From Bacillota bacterium (lineage in GTDB: Bacteria; Bacillota; Sulfobacillia; JAJZYS01; JAILZS01): a stretch of DNA of 64,000 bases. Under the pieces are notes generated by a model, which was given only the letters and a program-made list of their open reading frames with translations, did not search any database and was not told where the DNA came from. The position numbers and the translations under genes were made by a program. The stretch spans positions 27,260-91,259 of the forward strand of contig JAILZS010000003.1 in NCBI GenBank assembly GCA_023512375.1, in the 5' to 3' direction. Positions 59,377-64,000 of this stretch are shown here, one piece after another (within the stretch, counting starts at the first letter, position 1; the number at the start of each line of letters is the position of its first letter).

Positions 59377-60183
59377 TCACGAAGGGCGCACGATGAGCCG
59401 GCCGTACATGCCCGCTCGGGCGTGGCCCGGATATGTGCACAGGTAGGTGTACGTGCCGGCCGCCTGGGCAACAAACGCGGTCGCCGCGCTGGGCGATGCG
59501 CTCGTTGTCGCGGGCGGCATGAGGGGCGTTGCGGCGCCCGGAAAGGCCAGCGGCGCCTGCATCATGGCCATGTACGAAAACGGCGGCCCGGCCGGCGTGA
59601 CGACCAGATTGTGGTACATGCCCGTGTCCGCGTTGACGAGCGTCAGGTGGACCGCGGCTCCCACCGGCACGACGACCGTCGGGTTCACGAGGCCGGCGAT
59701 CCGAAACGTCTCGTCCCGCTGCCCGGACGGGCTGGCGACGACGACGAGGGTCACGGCCCGGCTGGCGAACACGACGCGGTTGGCGCTGGGGTCTACGGTC
59801 GCGCCGCTCGGGGCCGAGTCGCCGAGGGCGGCCACGCGCGCCGCGGGCACGGATCGCTCGGAGTAGGCGTAGGCGCCGTAGGCGCCCATCATGCCGTATC
59901 CGTATCCATTCCCATATCCGCCCATCTTCCCCGGTCCTGGCCCCGGCCCGGATCCGTATCCCCATCCGTAGCCGCCGCGCGCGCCGCCGACCGGCGCAGA
60001 GGCGCCCGCGCGCGTCGCCGCCCCCGGCCGCCAGAAAGGACACCACCGGGTCCAACTTGCCGCGGGGCCACCCGTCCCGGCCGCCGCTTGCATCGCCCCG
60101 GCGGCGCCGATGACGGCCGCTATGCCGAACGCTGCCACGCCGACCACTTTCCACCCGCCCATCTTCCAGGTCACGCCATCCAC
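59377..60183 (-). CDS. cupredoxin-like type-1 copper protein with N-terminal membrane anchor and Gly/Tyr-rich linker
   Basis: C-terminal CTYPGHARAGMYG (Cys...His...Met type-1 copper ligands, with an upstream His in MYHNLVV). N-terminal TM. Low-complexity GGYGWGYGSGPGPGPGKMGGYGNGYGYGMMGAYGAYAY segment. Confidence 0.65.
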   Translation of the reverse strand: MDGVTWKMGGWKVVGVAAFGIAAVIGAAGAMQAAAGTGGPAASWTRWCPFWRPGAATRAGASAPVGGARGGYGWGYGSGPGPGPGKMGGYGNGYGYGMMGAYGAYAYSERSVPAARVAALGDSAPSGATVDPSANRVVFASRAVTLVVVASPSGQRDETFRIAGLVNPTVVVPVGAAVHLTLVNADTGMYHNLVVTPAGPPFSYMAMMQAPLAFPGAATPLMPPATTSASPSAATAFVAQAAGTYTYLCTYPGHARAGMYGRLIVRPS

Positions 60184-60231: not shown

Positions 60232-60474
60232 TCAACGCGGCCGCTCGGTCAGGTCGGCGCGCATCTTGAGGAACTCGTCACGCGTGAGCTCGCCCTTGGC
60301 GTACCGTCGCTCGAGGAGCGTGAGCGCATCGCCGTCGTCCCGCGCCCGACCCGGCGGCGACGCCCACCACAAGCGAAGCAGATAGGCCACAGCAACCAGC
60401 ACCGCCAGCCAGAACAAGAACATGCCGATCGGACCGACCCAGCCCCACGGTCCCCCGAAGTACCCCCACATCAT
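60232..60474 (-). CDS. SHOCT domain membrane protein
   Basis: Two-TM N-terminus then LLERRYAKGELTRDEFLKMRADL, matching the SHOCT (short C-terminal) domain signature. Confidence 0.65.
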   Translation of the reverse strand: MMWGYFGGPWGWVGPIGMFLFWLAVLVAVAYLLRLWWASPPGRARDDGDALTLLERRYAKGELTRDEFLKMRADLTERPR

Positions 60475-60684
60475 CCGGCATCCTCCCCTTCGCGCCCAAG
60501 TGTACGCGGCCGGCCTCCGGCGACGGTTCAGCCCCTCTCAGGGTGGGCGCACGCCTGGCTCAAGACTCCGTTCAGTCCGCCCGCGTGCGCGCCGCGATGC
60601 GCTCGCGGCGTGGCTGCGGGCGTCCGTGGCACGGAACGATGCGGGCTCCGGCCCGCACCGACGAGTCGAGCGCGTTGGGACCGG

Positions 60685-60885
60685 CTAGGGTGCCGCGATG
60701 ACGACACCCACCACCAACACCAGCAAGCCGGCGGTCCAGCGAAGCGGCTGGCGAGCGCGTGCGAAGGCATGCCCGACGGCCTGAAGAACGCGCCGGTGCG
60801 TAGCGGTCAGGCCTACGCCCAAGACCGGGGTGAGATAGAACAAGTTGTACAGGAGCAGCGCTCCGACGGCCTCCGGCCGCGGCAA
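60685..60885 (-). CDS. small hydrophobic ORF (66 aa), possibly the 3' remnant of a gene interrupted by the IS607-family insertion
   Basis: TTG start. The in-frame stop upstream (TAA 60907-60909) coincides with the inferred IS left boundary. Confidence 0.25.
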   Translation of the reverse strand: MPRPEAVGALLLYNLFYLTPVLGVGLTATHRRVLQAVGHAFARARQPLRWTAGLLVLVVGVVIAAP

Positions 60886-60953
60886 GGGCGCGATCGCGGC
60901 GAGGACTTACACTTTGACTGGACTTAGTAGGCTAAATCTCGTACCATGGTCTC

Positions 60954-61586
60954 ATGGATGATTTTGTCAGCATCGCGGAGGCGCGGCGGCGTCTTGGGGT
61001 GTCATCCCGCACGTTGCGGCGGTGGGATGCGCAAGGCGTCCTCCAGACCATTCGTAGCCCGGGCGGGCGCCGGATGTTCAGCTTGGAGTCGATCAGCCGC
61101 CTGGCTGGAGAGCGAAGCGGCCAAAACCGGGCCGTCATCTATGCTCGGGTGTCGTCCATCAAGCAGAAGCGAGACGGCAACCTGGACCGGCAAAGAGAAC
61201 GCCTTCTGAACGCAGCCAAGGAACGAGGCTATCGCATTGTCGAGGTGATCGCGGAACAAGCGTCGGGCATCAATGAGAAACGGCGCGGACTGCGCCGCAT
61301 CTTCCGTTTGGCGGAAGACAGCAAGATCGACATCGTGCTGATCGAGTTCCGTGATCGTTTGGCTCGGTTTGGATACAGCTACATCGAAACGTATCTTTCC
61401 GCCCGTAAGGTTCGCGTCGTGTGCCTCGACGATGCTCCACCAGCTTCTACAGAAAGCGAGCTTACGCGCGACCTTATCACCATCATTACGGTGTTCTCTG
61501 CACGGCTCTACGGACAGCGCAGTCGCGGCTTTCGCAAGAAAGTGACCGATGTGATCCATGAGCACCACGCGGCGATCAGAGGGTAG
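60954..61586 (+). CDS. tnpA: IS607-family transposase TnpA (serine recombinase with N-terminal MerR-like HTH)
   Basis: N-terminal MerR-type HTH (VSIAEARRRLGVSSRTLRRWDAQGVL) and resolvase catalytic domain with the Ser nucleophile region (AVIYARVSSIKQK). Confidence 0.85.
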   Translation: MDDFVSIAEARRRLGVSSRTLRRWDAQGVLQTIRSPGGRRMFSLESISRLAGERSGQNRAVIYARVSSIKQKRDGNLDRQRERLLNAAKERGYRIVEVIAEQASGINEKRRGLRRIFRLAEDSKIDIVLIEFRDRLARFGYSYIETYLSARKVRVVCLDDAPPASTESELTRDLITIITVFSARLYGQRSRGFRKKVTDVIHEHHAAIRG

Positions 61587-61590
61587 ATGC

Positions 61591-63171
61591 ATGGGGCAGG
61601 TCCAAGCTGTACGCACCATGATCCTTCCCTTGTGGGGGCCGAACGGCGTCAAGAACGAGGCGCTTGAACGAACTCAGGCTCTGTTCGAGAAGATCGTCGC
61701 GTTCTACATCCCCGTCCTCAGGCAGGAGGGAGGCCTATGGGCCAAGGTTCCCAAGCGAGACAAGGAGACGCGAGCGATCCTCTTCGACCCCGAAACCGGC
61801 GAGATCAAGATGCGCGCCCCCACCGCCGACGACGTGCTGACGAGGGCAGAAGCCATCACGGTGAAGACCAAGGCCCACCCGGACCCGCCCTACGATCTTT
61901 CGGCGGTGCCCGGGGCGGCTAAGGCTCCCGTCGTGTTCCGGCGGGCCGCGATCAAGCGCGCCATCGGGCTTGTGCAGGCGTATCGCTCGAACCTTGCCCG
62001 CTGGGAGCGCCGGGGGCGAAGGGGCCGGATGCCTGGGATGCCAACGGTGGAGCGATTCCCCGTCACGATCTACCAAGGCCTGGGCTTCATCGTGCGGGGG
62101 CCTCTGCGTTCCTTCCTGAAGGTGAAGCTGTGGAACGGGGCCAAGTGGGACTGGTTTGAGATCCCGGTGCGCATTCCCGAACGCGCCGCTACGCTCCTGG
62201 CGGCGTCAGAGGCCACCCGCGCAAGGATGGAGGCGGTGCTGAGCGCGGCCCGTGCCCTCGAACGGGAGGGGCGCACAGAGAAAGCCCAGGCGGTGCGCGA
62301 AGAGCTCAAGCCGCTGCCATGGGAGATCGCCCAGGCGTCGGCCACGCTCTACCGGCACGCTGACGGATGGGCTGTGCACGTGCCGTTCGTGCGCACAGTG
62401 CCAGTGCAAAAGGCGGAGAATCAACGCGAGGCCAACCCGGGGCTGGCGATCACAACCGTGGATCTGGGAGAGAACAATCTCGCTGCTGCGGCTTCCTGGA
62501 AGGGGCGCAAGGTCACAGGCACGCTCTTCGTTCCCGGTAGGGAGCACGAGGCGCGGCGCATGCGGCGGCTTTCAGCGATCCGGCGTCGGCAGACGGCGTC
62601 CGGCAAGCCGATCAAGGGCGTGCGGTCGAACAAACGGCGCTGGGTCAGGTTGGCCCAAGCCGAAGAGGACACCGCCCGCAAGACCGCACGCGCCATCGTA
62701 GACTTCGCCAAGGCACATGGCTCCAAGGTGATCGTCTTCGAGGCGCTGAACCGGATGCCTGGCACCCGGCGCATGGGGTGGACAAGGCGCCAGAACCTGC
62801 GCCGGTCCTGGTGGATCCGAGGGAAGATCCTGGAGTTCGTCCGGGAGATGGCCCTTTGGGAGGGCATCTTGGTCGTGCGGCGCGATCCGGCGTTCACGTC
62901 CAAGGCGTGCCCGCGCTGTGGCACATACGGGGAGAGGTTCTCCCAGCGTGCGCATGGGCGGGGGCCACGCCACACCTTCCACTGCCCTGCGTGCGGCTGG
63001 GAAGGGAACGCCGACCTTGTGGGCGCACTCAACCTGAAGAAGAAGTGGGATCGGACATTCCCACCGCTTGGGCCGCTCATGGCCGCGGCCAAGGAAGCGA
63101 GGAAGACCCAAACCGCTCCCGCCGGATTGGGGGATAAGGGAGCGGTGGGATGTGCGGCTAACGCCGGCTGA
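61591..63171 (+). CDS. tnpB: TnpB (OrfB) RNA-guided endonuclease-like protein, IS605/IS607 family
   Basis: RuvC-like split motifs (TVDLGENNLAAAA; VIVFEALN; the C-terminal D/E region) and a CPRCG...CPACG zinc finger. ATG 61591 directly follows the tnpA stop. Confidence 0.85.
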   Translation: MGQVQAVRTMILPLWGPNGVKNEALERTQALFEKIVAFYIPVLRQEGGLWAKVPKRDKETRAILFDPETGEIKMRAPTADDVLTRAEAITVKTKAHPDPPYDLSAVPGAAKAPVVFRRAAIKRAIGLVQAYRSNLARWERRGRRGRMPGMPTVERFPVTIYQGLGFIVRGPLRSFLKVKLWNGAKWDWFEIPVRIPERAATLLAASEATRARMEAVLSAARALEREGRTEKAQAVREELKPLPWEIAQASATLYRHADGWAVHVPFVRTVPVQKAENQREANPGLAITTVDLGENNLAAAASWKGRKVTGTLFVPGREHEARRMRRLSAIRRRQTASGKPIKGVRSNKRRWVRLAQAEEDTARKTARAIVDFAKAHGSKVIVFEALNRMPGTRRMGWTRRQNLRRSWWIRGKILEFVREMALWEGILVVRRDPAFTSKACPRCGTYGERFSQRAHGRGPRHTFHCPACGWEGNADLVGALNLKKKWDRTFPPLGPLMAAAKEARKTQTAPAGLGDKGAVGCAANAG

Positions 63172-63671
63172 ACCTGCGGCGGATGCCGTGCGTCCCCTGG
63201 GCGACGTGGTTCGCCCTCGTCGAGGCCGACACGGGGAAGCAGAGGCTTGTTCCTCCAACCTGTGCCGGCGTAACCCAGGCTCCATCCCAAGGGCGGCTGG
63301 CAGACGTCGCCCGCTTGGGAACAACCCAGGCAGCAGGGGCCCGGGGCTCACAGAAGGAAAGCCGAGGGGGCATGTCCAATCATGTCCAACAAATCGGCTG
63401 CTGTTTCATACCACAAGGGCGGTGGCAGCGGCTAGGAGGGCGGCGAAATTGTGGCTGTGGGCGGGCACCCGAGCGGGCAAGGCGGCACCTCCAGGGTCGG
63501 CGCGAGCCGGCTGACCGGCGCCGGGCGGGTCGGTCGCCGCTGCGGTCGGTCCAGCACCATGCGAGCACGACCGGCCCACAGCCTCCAGTGTCCTGCGTTC
63601 GTCGTACGGTTCCCAAGGGTCTGGACTGCCAAGGGATCGTTCGTCCTAAGTCAACATAATATACATTATCG
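63100..63671 (+). ncRNA. probable TnpB-associated omega-RNA (right-end element RNA) region
   Basis: By established knowledge, TnpB omega-RNAs derive from the 3' end of tnpB and the IS right end. This segment is non-coding after 63171, has extensive stem potential (for example cccaagggcgg...ccgcttggg), and carries four copies of a CAAGGG-containing motif (63287, 63411, 63613, 63630). Exact ends unknown. Confidence 0.3.
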
Positions 63672-63785
63672 GACATAGGGAGGACGAGCTCCGCCACGGT
63701 TGGGTGCGCAGTCCCCCGCAAACGGTCGACAGCCGGCCTGCGGTCCACGTCGCCGGCCCTCCGCTTCGCCCTTCTGGTCGGCGTC

Positions 63786-64000
63786 ATGAGCTTCTTCGCG
63801 CACTTCACGCACGAAGGCTCACGCAGCATCGTCGGGCAGTACCTGGCGCTGCTCGGCCTGGGGGCGTTCGGCATCGCCGCGGTCGGCGGGCCCGGCGAGC
63901 TCGCCGGCTACGGTCTGCGCCAGGTTTCCTGCCGCCTGTTGGCCCGTCGCCGCGGCGCGGGTCGTGCGGAAACGCTCGTTCAGGCGACGCGCAACCCGCC
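63786..64000 (+). CDS. MFS transporter, N-terminal part (3' end outside the window; start uncertain)
   Basis: Frame reads ...LRFALLVGVMSFFAHFTHEGSRSIVGQYLALLGLGAFGIAAVGG..., the characteristic TM1 region of MFS transporters, and stays open to the window end. First ATG at 63786. The true start is probably a non-ATG codon upstream (about 63720). Confidence 0.5.
   Translation, partial: MSFFAHFTHEGSRSIVGQYLALLGLGAFGIAAVGGPGELAGYGLRQVSCRLLARRRGAGRAETLVQATRNP

Follow-up and report, generated by a model that had tools for sequence, protein, structure and literature searches.

A window of 64,000 nucleotides from a Bacillota bacterium, to whose positions all coordinates given here refer, very probably carries between 60907 and 63414 a single intact insertion sequence (IS) of the IS607 family, 2508 bp in length, in which the serine recombinase gene tnpA is followed by tnpB, the gene of an RNA-guided endonuclease, and by a conserved, covarying RNA structure that ends where the element itself ends. 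Comparison with related copies now defines the right end, the omega-RNA scaffold, the predicted guide, and the candidate TAM of this element, and corrects the reading of an earlier, first-pass annotation. In addition, the family-wide alignment provides a covariation-supported omega-RNA model for a clade of serine-recombinase-associated TnpB proteins whose omega-RNA is absent from Rfam and whose TnpB falls below the curated IS607_TnpB model. The element is otherwise a standard selfish one, located in an intergenic position, and nothing about it suggests a new mechanism. Its neighbors include sulfocyanin, SHOCT and MFS-like genes. The features discussed below are collected in the table.

Table. 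Features of the element and of its immediate flanks (window coordinates)
Feature	Position	Strand	Remarks
Left-flank GAC	60904..60906	+	AC (60905-06) is the probable crossover dinucleotide; G at -3 completes the candidate TAM
Left end (LE)	60907..60953	+	Non-coding, 43% GC; homology of relatives begins here
LE TTGAC-TGGAC motifs	60915-60923	+	Only TGAyTGGAC matches the reverse-complemented right end
LE hairpin CCATGGTCTCATGG	60944-60957	+	Abuts the tnpA start codon
tnpA	60954..61586	+	IS607-family serine recombinase, 210 aa; MerR-type HTH and resolvase catalytic domain
tnpB	61591..63171	+	RNA-guided endonuclease, likely 526 aa; ORF open from 61558
Omega-RNA scaffold, ~303 nt	about 63112..63414	+	Begins in the last 60 nt of tnpB, ends at the right terminus of the IS
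Scaffold helices	63112-63146, 63147-63196, 63199-63216, 63225-63269, 63274-63345, 63368-63387	+	RNA fold
Inner hairpins of helix 63274-63345	63291-63312, 63313-63331	+	
Subterminal direct repeat CATGTCCAA-T-CATGTCCAA	63371..63389	+	10-nt period, 100% identity; candidate TnpA site
Right terminus ACCAC	63410..63414	+	Ends in AC (63413-14), which repeats the probable crossover dinucleotide
Predicted guide segment, host DNA, AAGGGCGGTGGCAGCGGCTA	63415..63434	+	First bases after the conserved terminus

Extent, genes and relatives of the element

The first-pass annotation had proposed comparing copies of the IS with one another, as well as inferring a TAM from several insertion sites. The former comparison, run by blastn and MAFFT on relatives from other genomes and metagenomes (L001, L040-L047, and L053), places the ends at 60907 and 63414: similarity begins at 60903/60904, in agreement with the left end first proposed, and extends to 63414, with unrelated flanks on both sides. 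The closest sequenced copies are those of Ca. Hydrogenisulfobacillus filiaventi (LR778114, L040), of the MAG JAIMBI010000018 (L001), and of metagenome contigs from hot-spring or acid environments (L041-L047). Their TnpB is 78-82% identical to the present one and their DNA about 80% identical over the whole length between the two ends, with 82% identity for the nearest full-length relative, and they have the same ends (GAC/TTACA ... ACCAC/, with slashes at the junctions) in different insertion sites. A partial copy (L071) is 98.6% identical and diverges within the scaffold, at 63300.

More distant relatives were missed by nhmmer with the close-family alignment and were reached with a covariance model, which recovered the pattern ...TGTC-N-TTGTC...ACCAC 3' of tnpB in about 27 further copies, each with a different flank. 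Overall, about 36 related insertions all stop at the equivalent of 63414, their flanks differing directly after it, and nearly all terminate in ACCAC, the exceptions being ACCGC (L041) and ACCAG (L047). The same ends in about nine close and 27 distant copies, each with unrelated flanks, define a discrete mobile unit, and in one case (L044 and L053) a single element is found in two different flanks. Related elements measure about 2.55 kb, and the GC content of the IS is 0.64, versus 0.72-0.73 on either side, including 63415-63639. Terminal inverted repeats were not found, as the left end aligned with the reverse-complemented right end scores 14, compared with 13.9 +/- 2.9 for shuffled sequences, and nothing beyond AC is common to both junctions as a target-site duplication; both results are as expected for IS607.

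Regarding the proteins, TnpA scores 181 bits against the NCBIfam model NF033518, "IS607 family transposase" (cut-off 110), it matches PF00239 Resolvase (1e-22) and PF00376 MerR (2e-10) in Pfam, and its catalytic Ser67 is within a YARVSS motif. On one strand, tnpA runs through its stop codon to 61586 and tnpB starts at 61591, an arrangement also present in L040, L042, and L043; the ATG at 61591 is the likely true start of tnpB. In the alignment the RuvC triad of TnpB, D291/E384/D475, is intact, as is the zinc finger (C440, C443, C465, C468), and the protein matches both PF07282 (1e-16) and the guided_TnpB model NF040570 (107, cut-off 100). Its 42.9 bits against the IS607_TnpB model NF038280, for which the cut-off is 350, place it outside the canonical IS607 TnpB lineage, and among precomputed hits the sole match of its N-terminal 250 aa is to a newer Pfam family, PF27142. 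A MerR-HTH serine recombinase, an adjacent downstream tnpB, the lack of terminal inverted repeats, and a discrete mobile unit are together the hallmarks of the IS607 family. The first-pass annotation was right in calling an IS607-family element with tnpB, and in describing both genes as full-length, with tnpB ending at 63171.

A second copy was found neither by blastn nor by tblastn in the 64-kb window, the plasmid database contains no match for the element, and an exact look-up of the TnpB protein in public assemblies found none on record. Given that the window has no second copy and that public assemblies lack the exact protein, this copy may not have moved recently. The element could be a fossil that does not home, in which TnpB and/or TnpA are non-functional or TnpB now serves the host as a nuclease-dead, TldR-like regulator, a view to which the single copy in 64 kb, the only 82% identity of the nearest full-length relative, and a promoter scan that detected no sigma-70-like site all lend something. 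We regard it as unlikely, because the full-length ORFs, Ser67, the RuvC D-E-D triad, and the zinc finger are all preserved, the two ends and the helices of the omega-RNA remain intact when set against the family consensus, and tnpB still lies beside tnpA within a complete IS.

The omega-RNA scaffold at the right end

The reading of the element as intact extends to the RNA encoded at its right end. RNAalifold applied to eight sequences predicts 86 pairs, 24 of which are compensatory; 94% of the cells are paired, compared with 41-48% in controls, the 24 covarying pairs compare with 4-8 in slid controls, and none of 500 shuffles reaches the observed values. Folding of the single sequence gives z = -2.89. 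A conserved structured RNA, overlapping tnpB at its 3' end and stopping where the transposon does on the right, is what characterizes TnpB/OMEGA systems, and covariation and fold agree with the general idea, already in the first-pass annotation, of a structured omega-RNA at the right end that reads into the flank. Its transcription and processing are proposed in line with published work on TnpB as a processor of its own mRNA (PMC10278001). The scaffold has no family match in Rfam (cmscan, E <= 1, 60500-64000), the sole Rfam match being a single, sub-threshold one to CRISPR-DR20 (E = 0.72) in host DNA. A pseudoknot in which the 3' tail (GGCAnCTGnTGAC) would pair with regions upstream was considered and discarded, as the covariation, inspected by eye in 33 sequences, was inconsistent.

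The 243 nt that follow tnpB might instead be conserved only as a DNA recombination site, namely the TnpA-binding right end, or as a small coding gene, and this we find very unlikely. It is true that the last 60-70 nt, although their sequence is conserved, have few predicted pairs and contain direct repeats typical of TnpA sites, so that conservation of the final 70 nt may reflect TnpA-DNA binding instead of RNA structure, and that in L040 and L042 this region is covered by publicly annotated ORFs of 97-270 aa. However, the compensatory pairs belong to helices spanning 63112-63345, far past the ~60 bp required of an IS607 right end, and the structure begins inside tnpB, as in known omega-RNAs. 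In addition, indels of 1 nt break the reading frames among relatives, which argues against a coding role, and the annotated ORFs extend into non-homologous flanks. The CDS annotated over the omega-RNA in the closest copies are probably spurious; those copies are otherwise annotated only as a resolvase along with a protein whose function is given as unknown. At least one complete genome, LR778114 of Ca. Hydrogenisulfobacillus filiaventi, has its omega-RNA region mis-annotated as protein-coding.

The right-end direct repeat is a candidate binding site for the HTH of TnpA. The repeat is the inverse of the TGGAC motif of the left end, TGTCnnnnnTTTGTC within it is kept in the ~36 relatives, and the binding role is proposed by analogy with the subterminal motifs of IS607 and CboIStron (10.1101/2023.11.20.567912).

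Right flank, predicted guide and proposed homing cycle

The DNA from 63415 to 63679 is host DNA and not part of the IS: its GC content, 0.724, is host-like, it folds like shuffled sequence (z = -0.07), and it is common to none of the ~36 related copies. The first-pass annotation had instead carried the IS to about 63671, taking the whole 500 nt after tnpB as omega-RNA, an AT-rich stretch as the low-GC terminus, and GAGGACGAGC... / GAGGACGAGCTCC... from the right flank as the guide, a model that the alignments of relatives refute and that we consider scarcely credible, since, although 63640-63679 is indeed AT-rich (35% GC) and superficially like the low-GC left end, GAGGAC lies beside both proposed ends, and four CAAGGG hexamers occur in the segment, nothing past 63414 is held in common with any relative, 63415-63639 is at host GC, the fold is at chance level, the segment has no similarity to the element, and the conserved ACCAC terminus stands at 63410-63414. 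Of the roughly 500 nt described there as structured and non-coding, 63172-63414 belongs to the IS and the unstructured remainder does not; thus, the first-pass annotation's own alternative, that 63172-63671 might be host DNA, holds for its distal 257 nt (63415-63671). The scaffold is shifted accordingly to ~63112-63414, overlapping the last 60 nt of tnpB.

The short motifs noted in that annotation are present, but the CAAGGG copies and the second GAGGAC are due to chance. The four CAAGGG copies (+ strand; 63288, 63414, 63614, and 63630) do not form a repeat family, as a repeat search around them returned none; the first alone is inside the IS and is variable among relatives, the last two or three being host DNA, and the hexamer is not enriched in the window (39 found, 31.7 +/- 5.6 expected). 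GAGGAC is indeed present both at 60901-60906 and at 63680-63685, yet it does not mark a target site: the window has 30 occurrences on its + strand, roughly one every 2 kb, which makes the second copy, 266 nt past the true end, unremarkable.

Two further ideas about the flanks were set aside. The resemblance of CAAGGGCGG-TGGCAG at 63414 to CAAGGGCGGCTGGCAG at 63288 gave rise to the suggestion that 63415-63690 is a decayed older copy, for which the local alignment scores 27 versus 24.9 +/- 2.6 for shuffles. Joining 60906 to 63415 creates an uninterrupted ORF on the minus strand that includes a hydrophobic stretch, as if the IS interrupted a gene, but this is unsupported, because the ORF has no Pfam match and a search of 5.8 billion proteins gave no homologue; in DNA of 72% GC, such an open frame has probably arisen by chance.

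At the junctions themselves, the AC dinucleotide at 60905-06 and again at 63413-14 is the probable crossover core of the serine recombinase. GAC directly precedes TTACA in six of six independent insertions of close relatives, the bases further upstream being variable, and from these six insertions the TAM inference yields GAC as the candidate TAM for TnpB, by analogy with CboIStron, whose TAM, TGGG, contains its GG core (10.1101/2023.11.20.567912). In the distant group (36-51% identity) the left flanks have no conserved dinucleotide or bases, so the AC-core model may not generalize. With the element ending at 63414, the guide is predicted to start at 63415 (AAGGGCGGTGGCAGCGGC...), its length of 16-20 nt being assumed by analogy, and GAC followed by the predicted guide sequence has no other occurrence in the 64-kb window. 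As a consequence of the corrected right end, the RNA to look for is one of about 320 nt, ending near 63430-63434 and not near 63671.

The cycle proposed for this element, including its transcription, processing, guide length, TAM, cleavage, and homing, is modelled on published work on TnpA and TnpB of IS607 and CboIStron (10.1101/2023.11.20.567912). TnpA, whose catalytic residue is Ser67, would bind the subterminal TGGAC/GTCCA motifs and excise the element as a double-stranded circle, with crossover at the two AC dinucleotides, leaving the donor joint ...GCGAGG-AC-AAGGGCGG..., predicted as GCGAGGAC joined to AAGGGCGG, and an empty site whose predicted string is GCGATCGCGGCGAGGACAAGGGCGGTGGCAGC; the circle would be closed at ...CATACC-AC-TTACAC.... 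The two genes, 4 nt apart, are probably co-transcribed, and the transcript would read on past the right end into flanking DNA. Within it, the last 60 nt of tnpB and the 243-nt 3' UTR would fold into a scaffold of ~300 nt (63112-63414). TnpB, with its RuvC D291/E384/D475, would bind this scaffold, with the adjoining host bases from 63415 acting as guide, and the complex would cut the empty site (candidate TAM GAC, then AAGGGCGGTGGCAGC...) on the sister chromosome, after which recombinational repair would copy the element back. The occupied site would be spared, having CAC in place of GAC before the target.

Comparison with known systems

The TnpB clade is moderate-sized and divergent, with 126 representative clusters at E <= 1e-30, its sources being chiefly Bacillota with acidophilic or thermophilic habits and metagenomes of hot springs. 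The AlphaFold model of the protein (pLDDT 77.5) resembles AsCas12f and TnpB structures (Foldseek E = 1e-18 to 1e-11), and the closest solved structure is that of AsCas12f, the type V-F effector of Acidibacillus sulfuroxidans (PDB 7wju, 8j12, 8dzj), which is the best match among solved structures both in sequence (E = 8e-7) and in structure (E = 2e-18, TM 0.46-0.58). Both have a long guide RNA, but the identity is only ~16%, and AsCas12f works with a CRISPR array and a tracrRNA, whereas here there is neither and the gene is inside a mobile IS; with no repeat array and with tnpA present, the locus is not a type V-F CRISPR-Cas12f system. A speculative reading, which we think improbable, is that the clade is a sister lineage of the AsCas12f-type V-F effectors that is still mobile and carried by transposons, with an unusually long (~300 nt) multi-helix omega-RNA, possibly dimeric like Cas12f, and with GAC as a short TAM linked to a crossover core other than GG (AC). 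If so, it would be a living intermediate of the TnpB-to-Cas12f transition and would offer a thermostable compact nuclease.

The OMEGA nuclease ISDra2 TnpB, from the IS200/IS605 group (PDB 8h1j, 8exa), has the same RuvC and zinc-finger nuclease fold (Foldseek E = 1.6e-11) and a guide RNA that likewise shares its start with the tnpB 3' end and stops at the right end of the transposon, and a homing-type role would be expected for both. The differences are in the partner, a Y1 HUH enzyme there and a serine recombinase here, in the length of TnpB, which here exceeds the other by ~120 aa and has a helical insertion at ~197-238 (526-aa numbering; 208-249 in the 537-aa ORF), in the marginal sequence similarity (E = 0.33), and in the scaffold, which is about twice as long here.

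The nearest counterparts in organization are IS607 of Helicobacter pylori and CboIStron/IS607 of Clostridium botulinum (Zedaveinyte et al., 10.1101/2023.11.20.567912). Their core is GG (TAM TGGG), while here it is apparently AC (candidate TAM GAC), and the TnpB described here, of 526 aa, is below the IS607_TnpB model and has a scaffold of ~300 nt. CboIStron contains a group I intron, whereas none is present here (Rfam cmscan, E <= 1, 60500-64000) and the left end has only 47 nt, so that the element is not an IStron. In all of them, a serine recombinase with an N-terminal MerR-HTH precedes tnpB on the same strand, terminal inverted repeats are lacking, no duplication exceeds the shared core dinucleotide, and short subterminal repeats accompany a right-end omega-RNA and a TAM, here a candidate one, that contains the core dinucleotide.

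Boundaries of the element

The extent of the IS607-family element was derived from related loci, gathered by protein search, by scanning genome and metagenome contigs for patterns, and by exact-protein look-ups. Nine close copies, including one in Ca. Hydrogenisulfobacillus filiaventi (LR778114), have TnpB proteins 67–86% identical to that of the window, and their DNA is about 80% identical to the window between 60903/60904 and 63414, with nothing in common beyond. All copies in the multiple alignments terminate in ...TTTCATACCAC and have flanks unrelated from the next base on, and two of them, L044 and L053, present one element with two different right flanks. More distant relatives were reached with a covariance model built on the last 190 nt of the element, which gave weak plus-strand matches 3' of tnpB in about 27 of them (34–51% protein identity), all ending in ...TGTCnnnnnTTTGTCnnGCAAATCGGGCAnCTGnTGAyACCAC and then continuing into differing sequence. 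Because close and distant copies share a terminus and diverge after it, the right end lies at 63414, and not near 63671, where the first-pass annotation had put it. Its left end, 60907, agrees with the close copies, all of which read GAC in the flank followed by TTACAC... in the element. This comparison thus fixes an element of 2508 bp, related ones being about 2.55 kb long; the segment 63172–63671, for which host DNA had been named as the alternative, belongs to the element up to 63414, but is host DNA from 63415 on.

Two copies deviate from this plan. In L044 (350–480; metagenome contigs OGCG01011052 and JGI24721J44947_10179534 for L044 and L053), the left end, GAC followed by TTACAG, is just 117 nt 5' of tnpB, and this copy is therefore an IS1341-like derivative that belongs to the same family but lacks tnpA; in L053 the same right end borders a different flank. 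A partial copy (L071, 1–1348, Logan SRR15214122) corresponds to window 61996–63300, is 98.6% identical to tnpB and the proximal omega-RNA, and diverges sharply at the equivalent of 63300, within the scaffold; the cause is either truncation or rearrangement of this copy or a break in the assembly.

Features of the element and its left neighbours (window positions)
Feature	Position	Strand	Remarks
IS607-family element	60907-63414		
tnpA	60954-61586	+	210 aa; MerR-type HTH and resolvase catalytic domain (Pfam)
tnpB	to 63171 (open from 61558)	+	begins four bases past tnpA stop; TnpB-type protein
Supported omega-RNA helices	63112-63345	+	covariation among eight copies
Weaker omega-RNA hairpin	63368-63387	+	helix listing
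Sulfocyanin-like cupredoxin (SoxE/Copper-bind)	59377-60183	-	left neighbour of IS
SHOCT-domain small membrane protein	60232-60474	-	left neighbour of IS

A covarying RNA at the right end

From eight distinct close copies aligned over 63070–63413, RNAalifold returned a consensus of 86 pairs, with compensatory double changes in 24. An independent count of the pairs puts paired cells at 94.3%, compared with 41–48% when partners are slid by 1–3 columns, the covarying pairs drop from 24 to 4–8 in the same controls, and none of 500 column shuffles matched the observed values. The single sequence 63112–63414 also folds with z = -2.89. An omega-RNA at the right end had been proposed before, and this much stands, as the covarying structure ends at the terminus, 63414; the stretch 63415–63679, on the other hand, folds no better than its shuffles (z = -0.07).

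Since the supported helices start at 63112, the omega-RNA structure begins within the last 60 nt of tnpB. These nucleotides encode a C-terminal tail of low confidence (pLDDT below 50), predicted to be probably disordered. The last ~20 residues, TAPAGLGDKGAVGCAANAG (codons 63109–63171), are conserved and encoded by helices 63112–63196; because their codons form omega-RNA helices, it is probably the RNA and not the protein that keeps them conserved. Indels of 1 nt between relatives rule out a conserved reading frame over the omega-RNA, and publicly annotated ORFs on this region continue into non-homologous flanks. The gene calls in L040 (LR778114, 5096–5908, 270 aa) and L042 (2323–2616, 97 aa), both of which cover the omega-RNA region and extend into the flank, are probably spurious, since the RNA covaries and homology is lost at the right end.

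In the last 70 nt of the scaffold the sequence is conserved but the predicted pairing is not. This part holds the direct repeat CATGTCCAA-T-CATGTCCAA, the inverse of whose motif, TGGAC, is present in the left end and is the sole resemblance between the two ends; the repeat and TGGAC are probably TnpA binding sites, which would share ground with the part of the RNA next to the guide. Landmarks found family-wide are GGCT-AACG...CGGCGGATGCC and the terminal motif. The omega-RNA region has no match among Rfam families, and at the element neither a group I intron (Rfam) nor a CRISPR array (repeat searches) was detected.

Junctions and flanking DNA

Both junctions share the dinucleotide AC (60905–06 and 63413–14), as would be expected from a serine-recombinase crossover core, paralleling the GG core of IS607/CboIStron (10.1101/2023.11.20.567912). 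At the left junction, G precedes AC in six of six independent close insertions, while bases further 5' vary. The TAM of CboTnpB, TGGG, includes the GG core (10.1101/2023.11.20.567912), and by analogy GAC is a candidate TAM for the window TnpB; the occupied right junction reads CAC in place of GAC, which would shield the integrated copy. Distant relatives (L006–L028 and L049–L052, TnpB identity 36–41%) have the right terminus ACCAC of the close group, left ends beginning GGAG..., and a left flank in which no dinucleotide is conserved, and the matching-core model (AC/AC) of the window's subgroup is not obviously valid for them.

The flank 63415–63679 is common to no relative, its score against the element on both strands (27, versus 24.9 +/- 2.6 for shuffles) is not significant, and its GC content of 0.724 is host-like (IS 0.642, rest of window 0.728). 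Within it, 63640–63679 is AT-rich (35% GC), unique in the window, and followed by GGGAGG and an MFS-like membrane ORF; a near-palindrome, ATAATATACATTAT, lies within 63640–63685. We read 63640–63679 as host intergenic or regulatory DNA, with 63640–63685 probably serving as the operator or promoter and ribosome-binding site of the MFS-like ORF, for which no canonical in-frame start codon was found ahead of the first transmembrane helix.

The four CAAGGG copies formerly assigned to the RNA exist (63288, 63414, 63614 and 63630), but only the first is inside the IS, and it varies in relatives (CCAGGGG, CCGAGGG, CCAGTTG); the second spans the junction, the others lie in host DNA, and a repeat finder detected no family around them. 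The GAGGAC pair, once suggested as a target-site mark, loses that role, with 30 plus-strand copies in the window and the one at 63680 placed 266 nt past the true end.

The idea that a small membrane-protein gene on the minus strand is interrupted by the IS found no support: removing the IS in silico with one AC kept joins 60685–60885 (-) and 63415–63579 (-) into a continuous 128-codon frame with a hydrophobic stretch at the junction, but this frame matches no Pfam family, lacks homologues among 5.8 billion proteins, and is probably a chance opening in GC-rich DNA. The sulfocyanin-like and SHOCT neighbours fit an acidophilic or thermophilic host.

The two proteins and known systems

TnpA reaches 181 bits against the NCBIfam equivalog "IS607 family transposase" (cut-off 110), and its catalytic serine is Ser67, within YARVSS. 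The hairpin CCATGGTCTCATGG at 60944–60957, whose 3' end falls inside the tnpA start codon (ATG 60954), is almost unchanged across close relatives and may act on translation or in TnpA autoregulation. For tnpB, equivalent starts in homologues point to ATG 61591, giving 526 aa. Both genes are full length, as first annotated, and TnpB retains RuvC residues D291/E384/D475 and a CxxC...CxxC zinc finger. This is a complete IS607-type unit, whose catalytic motifs are intact, whose ends are defined and whose covarying RNA structure stops at the right terminus; the earlier annotation recognized the kind of element, with its TnpB and omega-RNA, but misplaced its anatomy.

By inference from published IS607 and TnpB work, TnpA crossover at AC would excise the element as a circle, and the tnpA-tnpB transcript would continue through the right end, where TnpB would bind its own 3' UTR and process it into the omega-RNA. 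The guide would be the adjoining host sequence, AAGGGCGGTGGCAGCGGC..., and not one past ~63671 as formerly placed. TnpB-omega-RNA would then cut the donor joint once it is empty (GAC plus target), favouring retention through recombinational repair; GAC plus guide is matched nowhere else in the window.

TnpB contains a Cas12f1-like TNB domain and passes the "guided_TnpB" model (107, cut-off 100), but stays far short of the cut-off of the canonical IS607_TnpB model (43, cut-off 350). Its clade is moderate-sized: when 1.84 billion representative proteins were searched with a profile, 126 matched at E <= 1e-30, and the count at E <= 1e-10 was 1292. The clade occurs chiefly in Sulfobacillus-like Bacillota and hot-spring or acid-environment metagenomes. 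One relative (P0012, 750 aa, JGI metagenome) is called as a single TnpA-TnpB protein with MerR, Resolvase and TNB domains; either the two are truly fused or the call reflects a frameshift or read-through.

The AlphaFold model of TnpB (pLDDT 77.5) matches AsCas12f best (E = 2e-18, TM 0.46–0.58) and ISDra2 TnpB more weakly (E = 1.6e-11), a ranking with which the PDB sequence search agrees (8e-7 and 0.33, respectively). We consider it improbable that AsCas12f-type effectors have in this clade a mobile sister lineage whose omega-RNA is unusually long. TnpBs paired with serine recombinases are polyphyletic (PMC10691335), so a non-canonical TnpB in an IS607-type element is to be expected, and the window element adds to a known kind of system, the IS607 type with TnpB.
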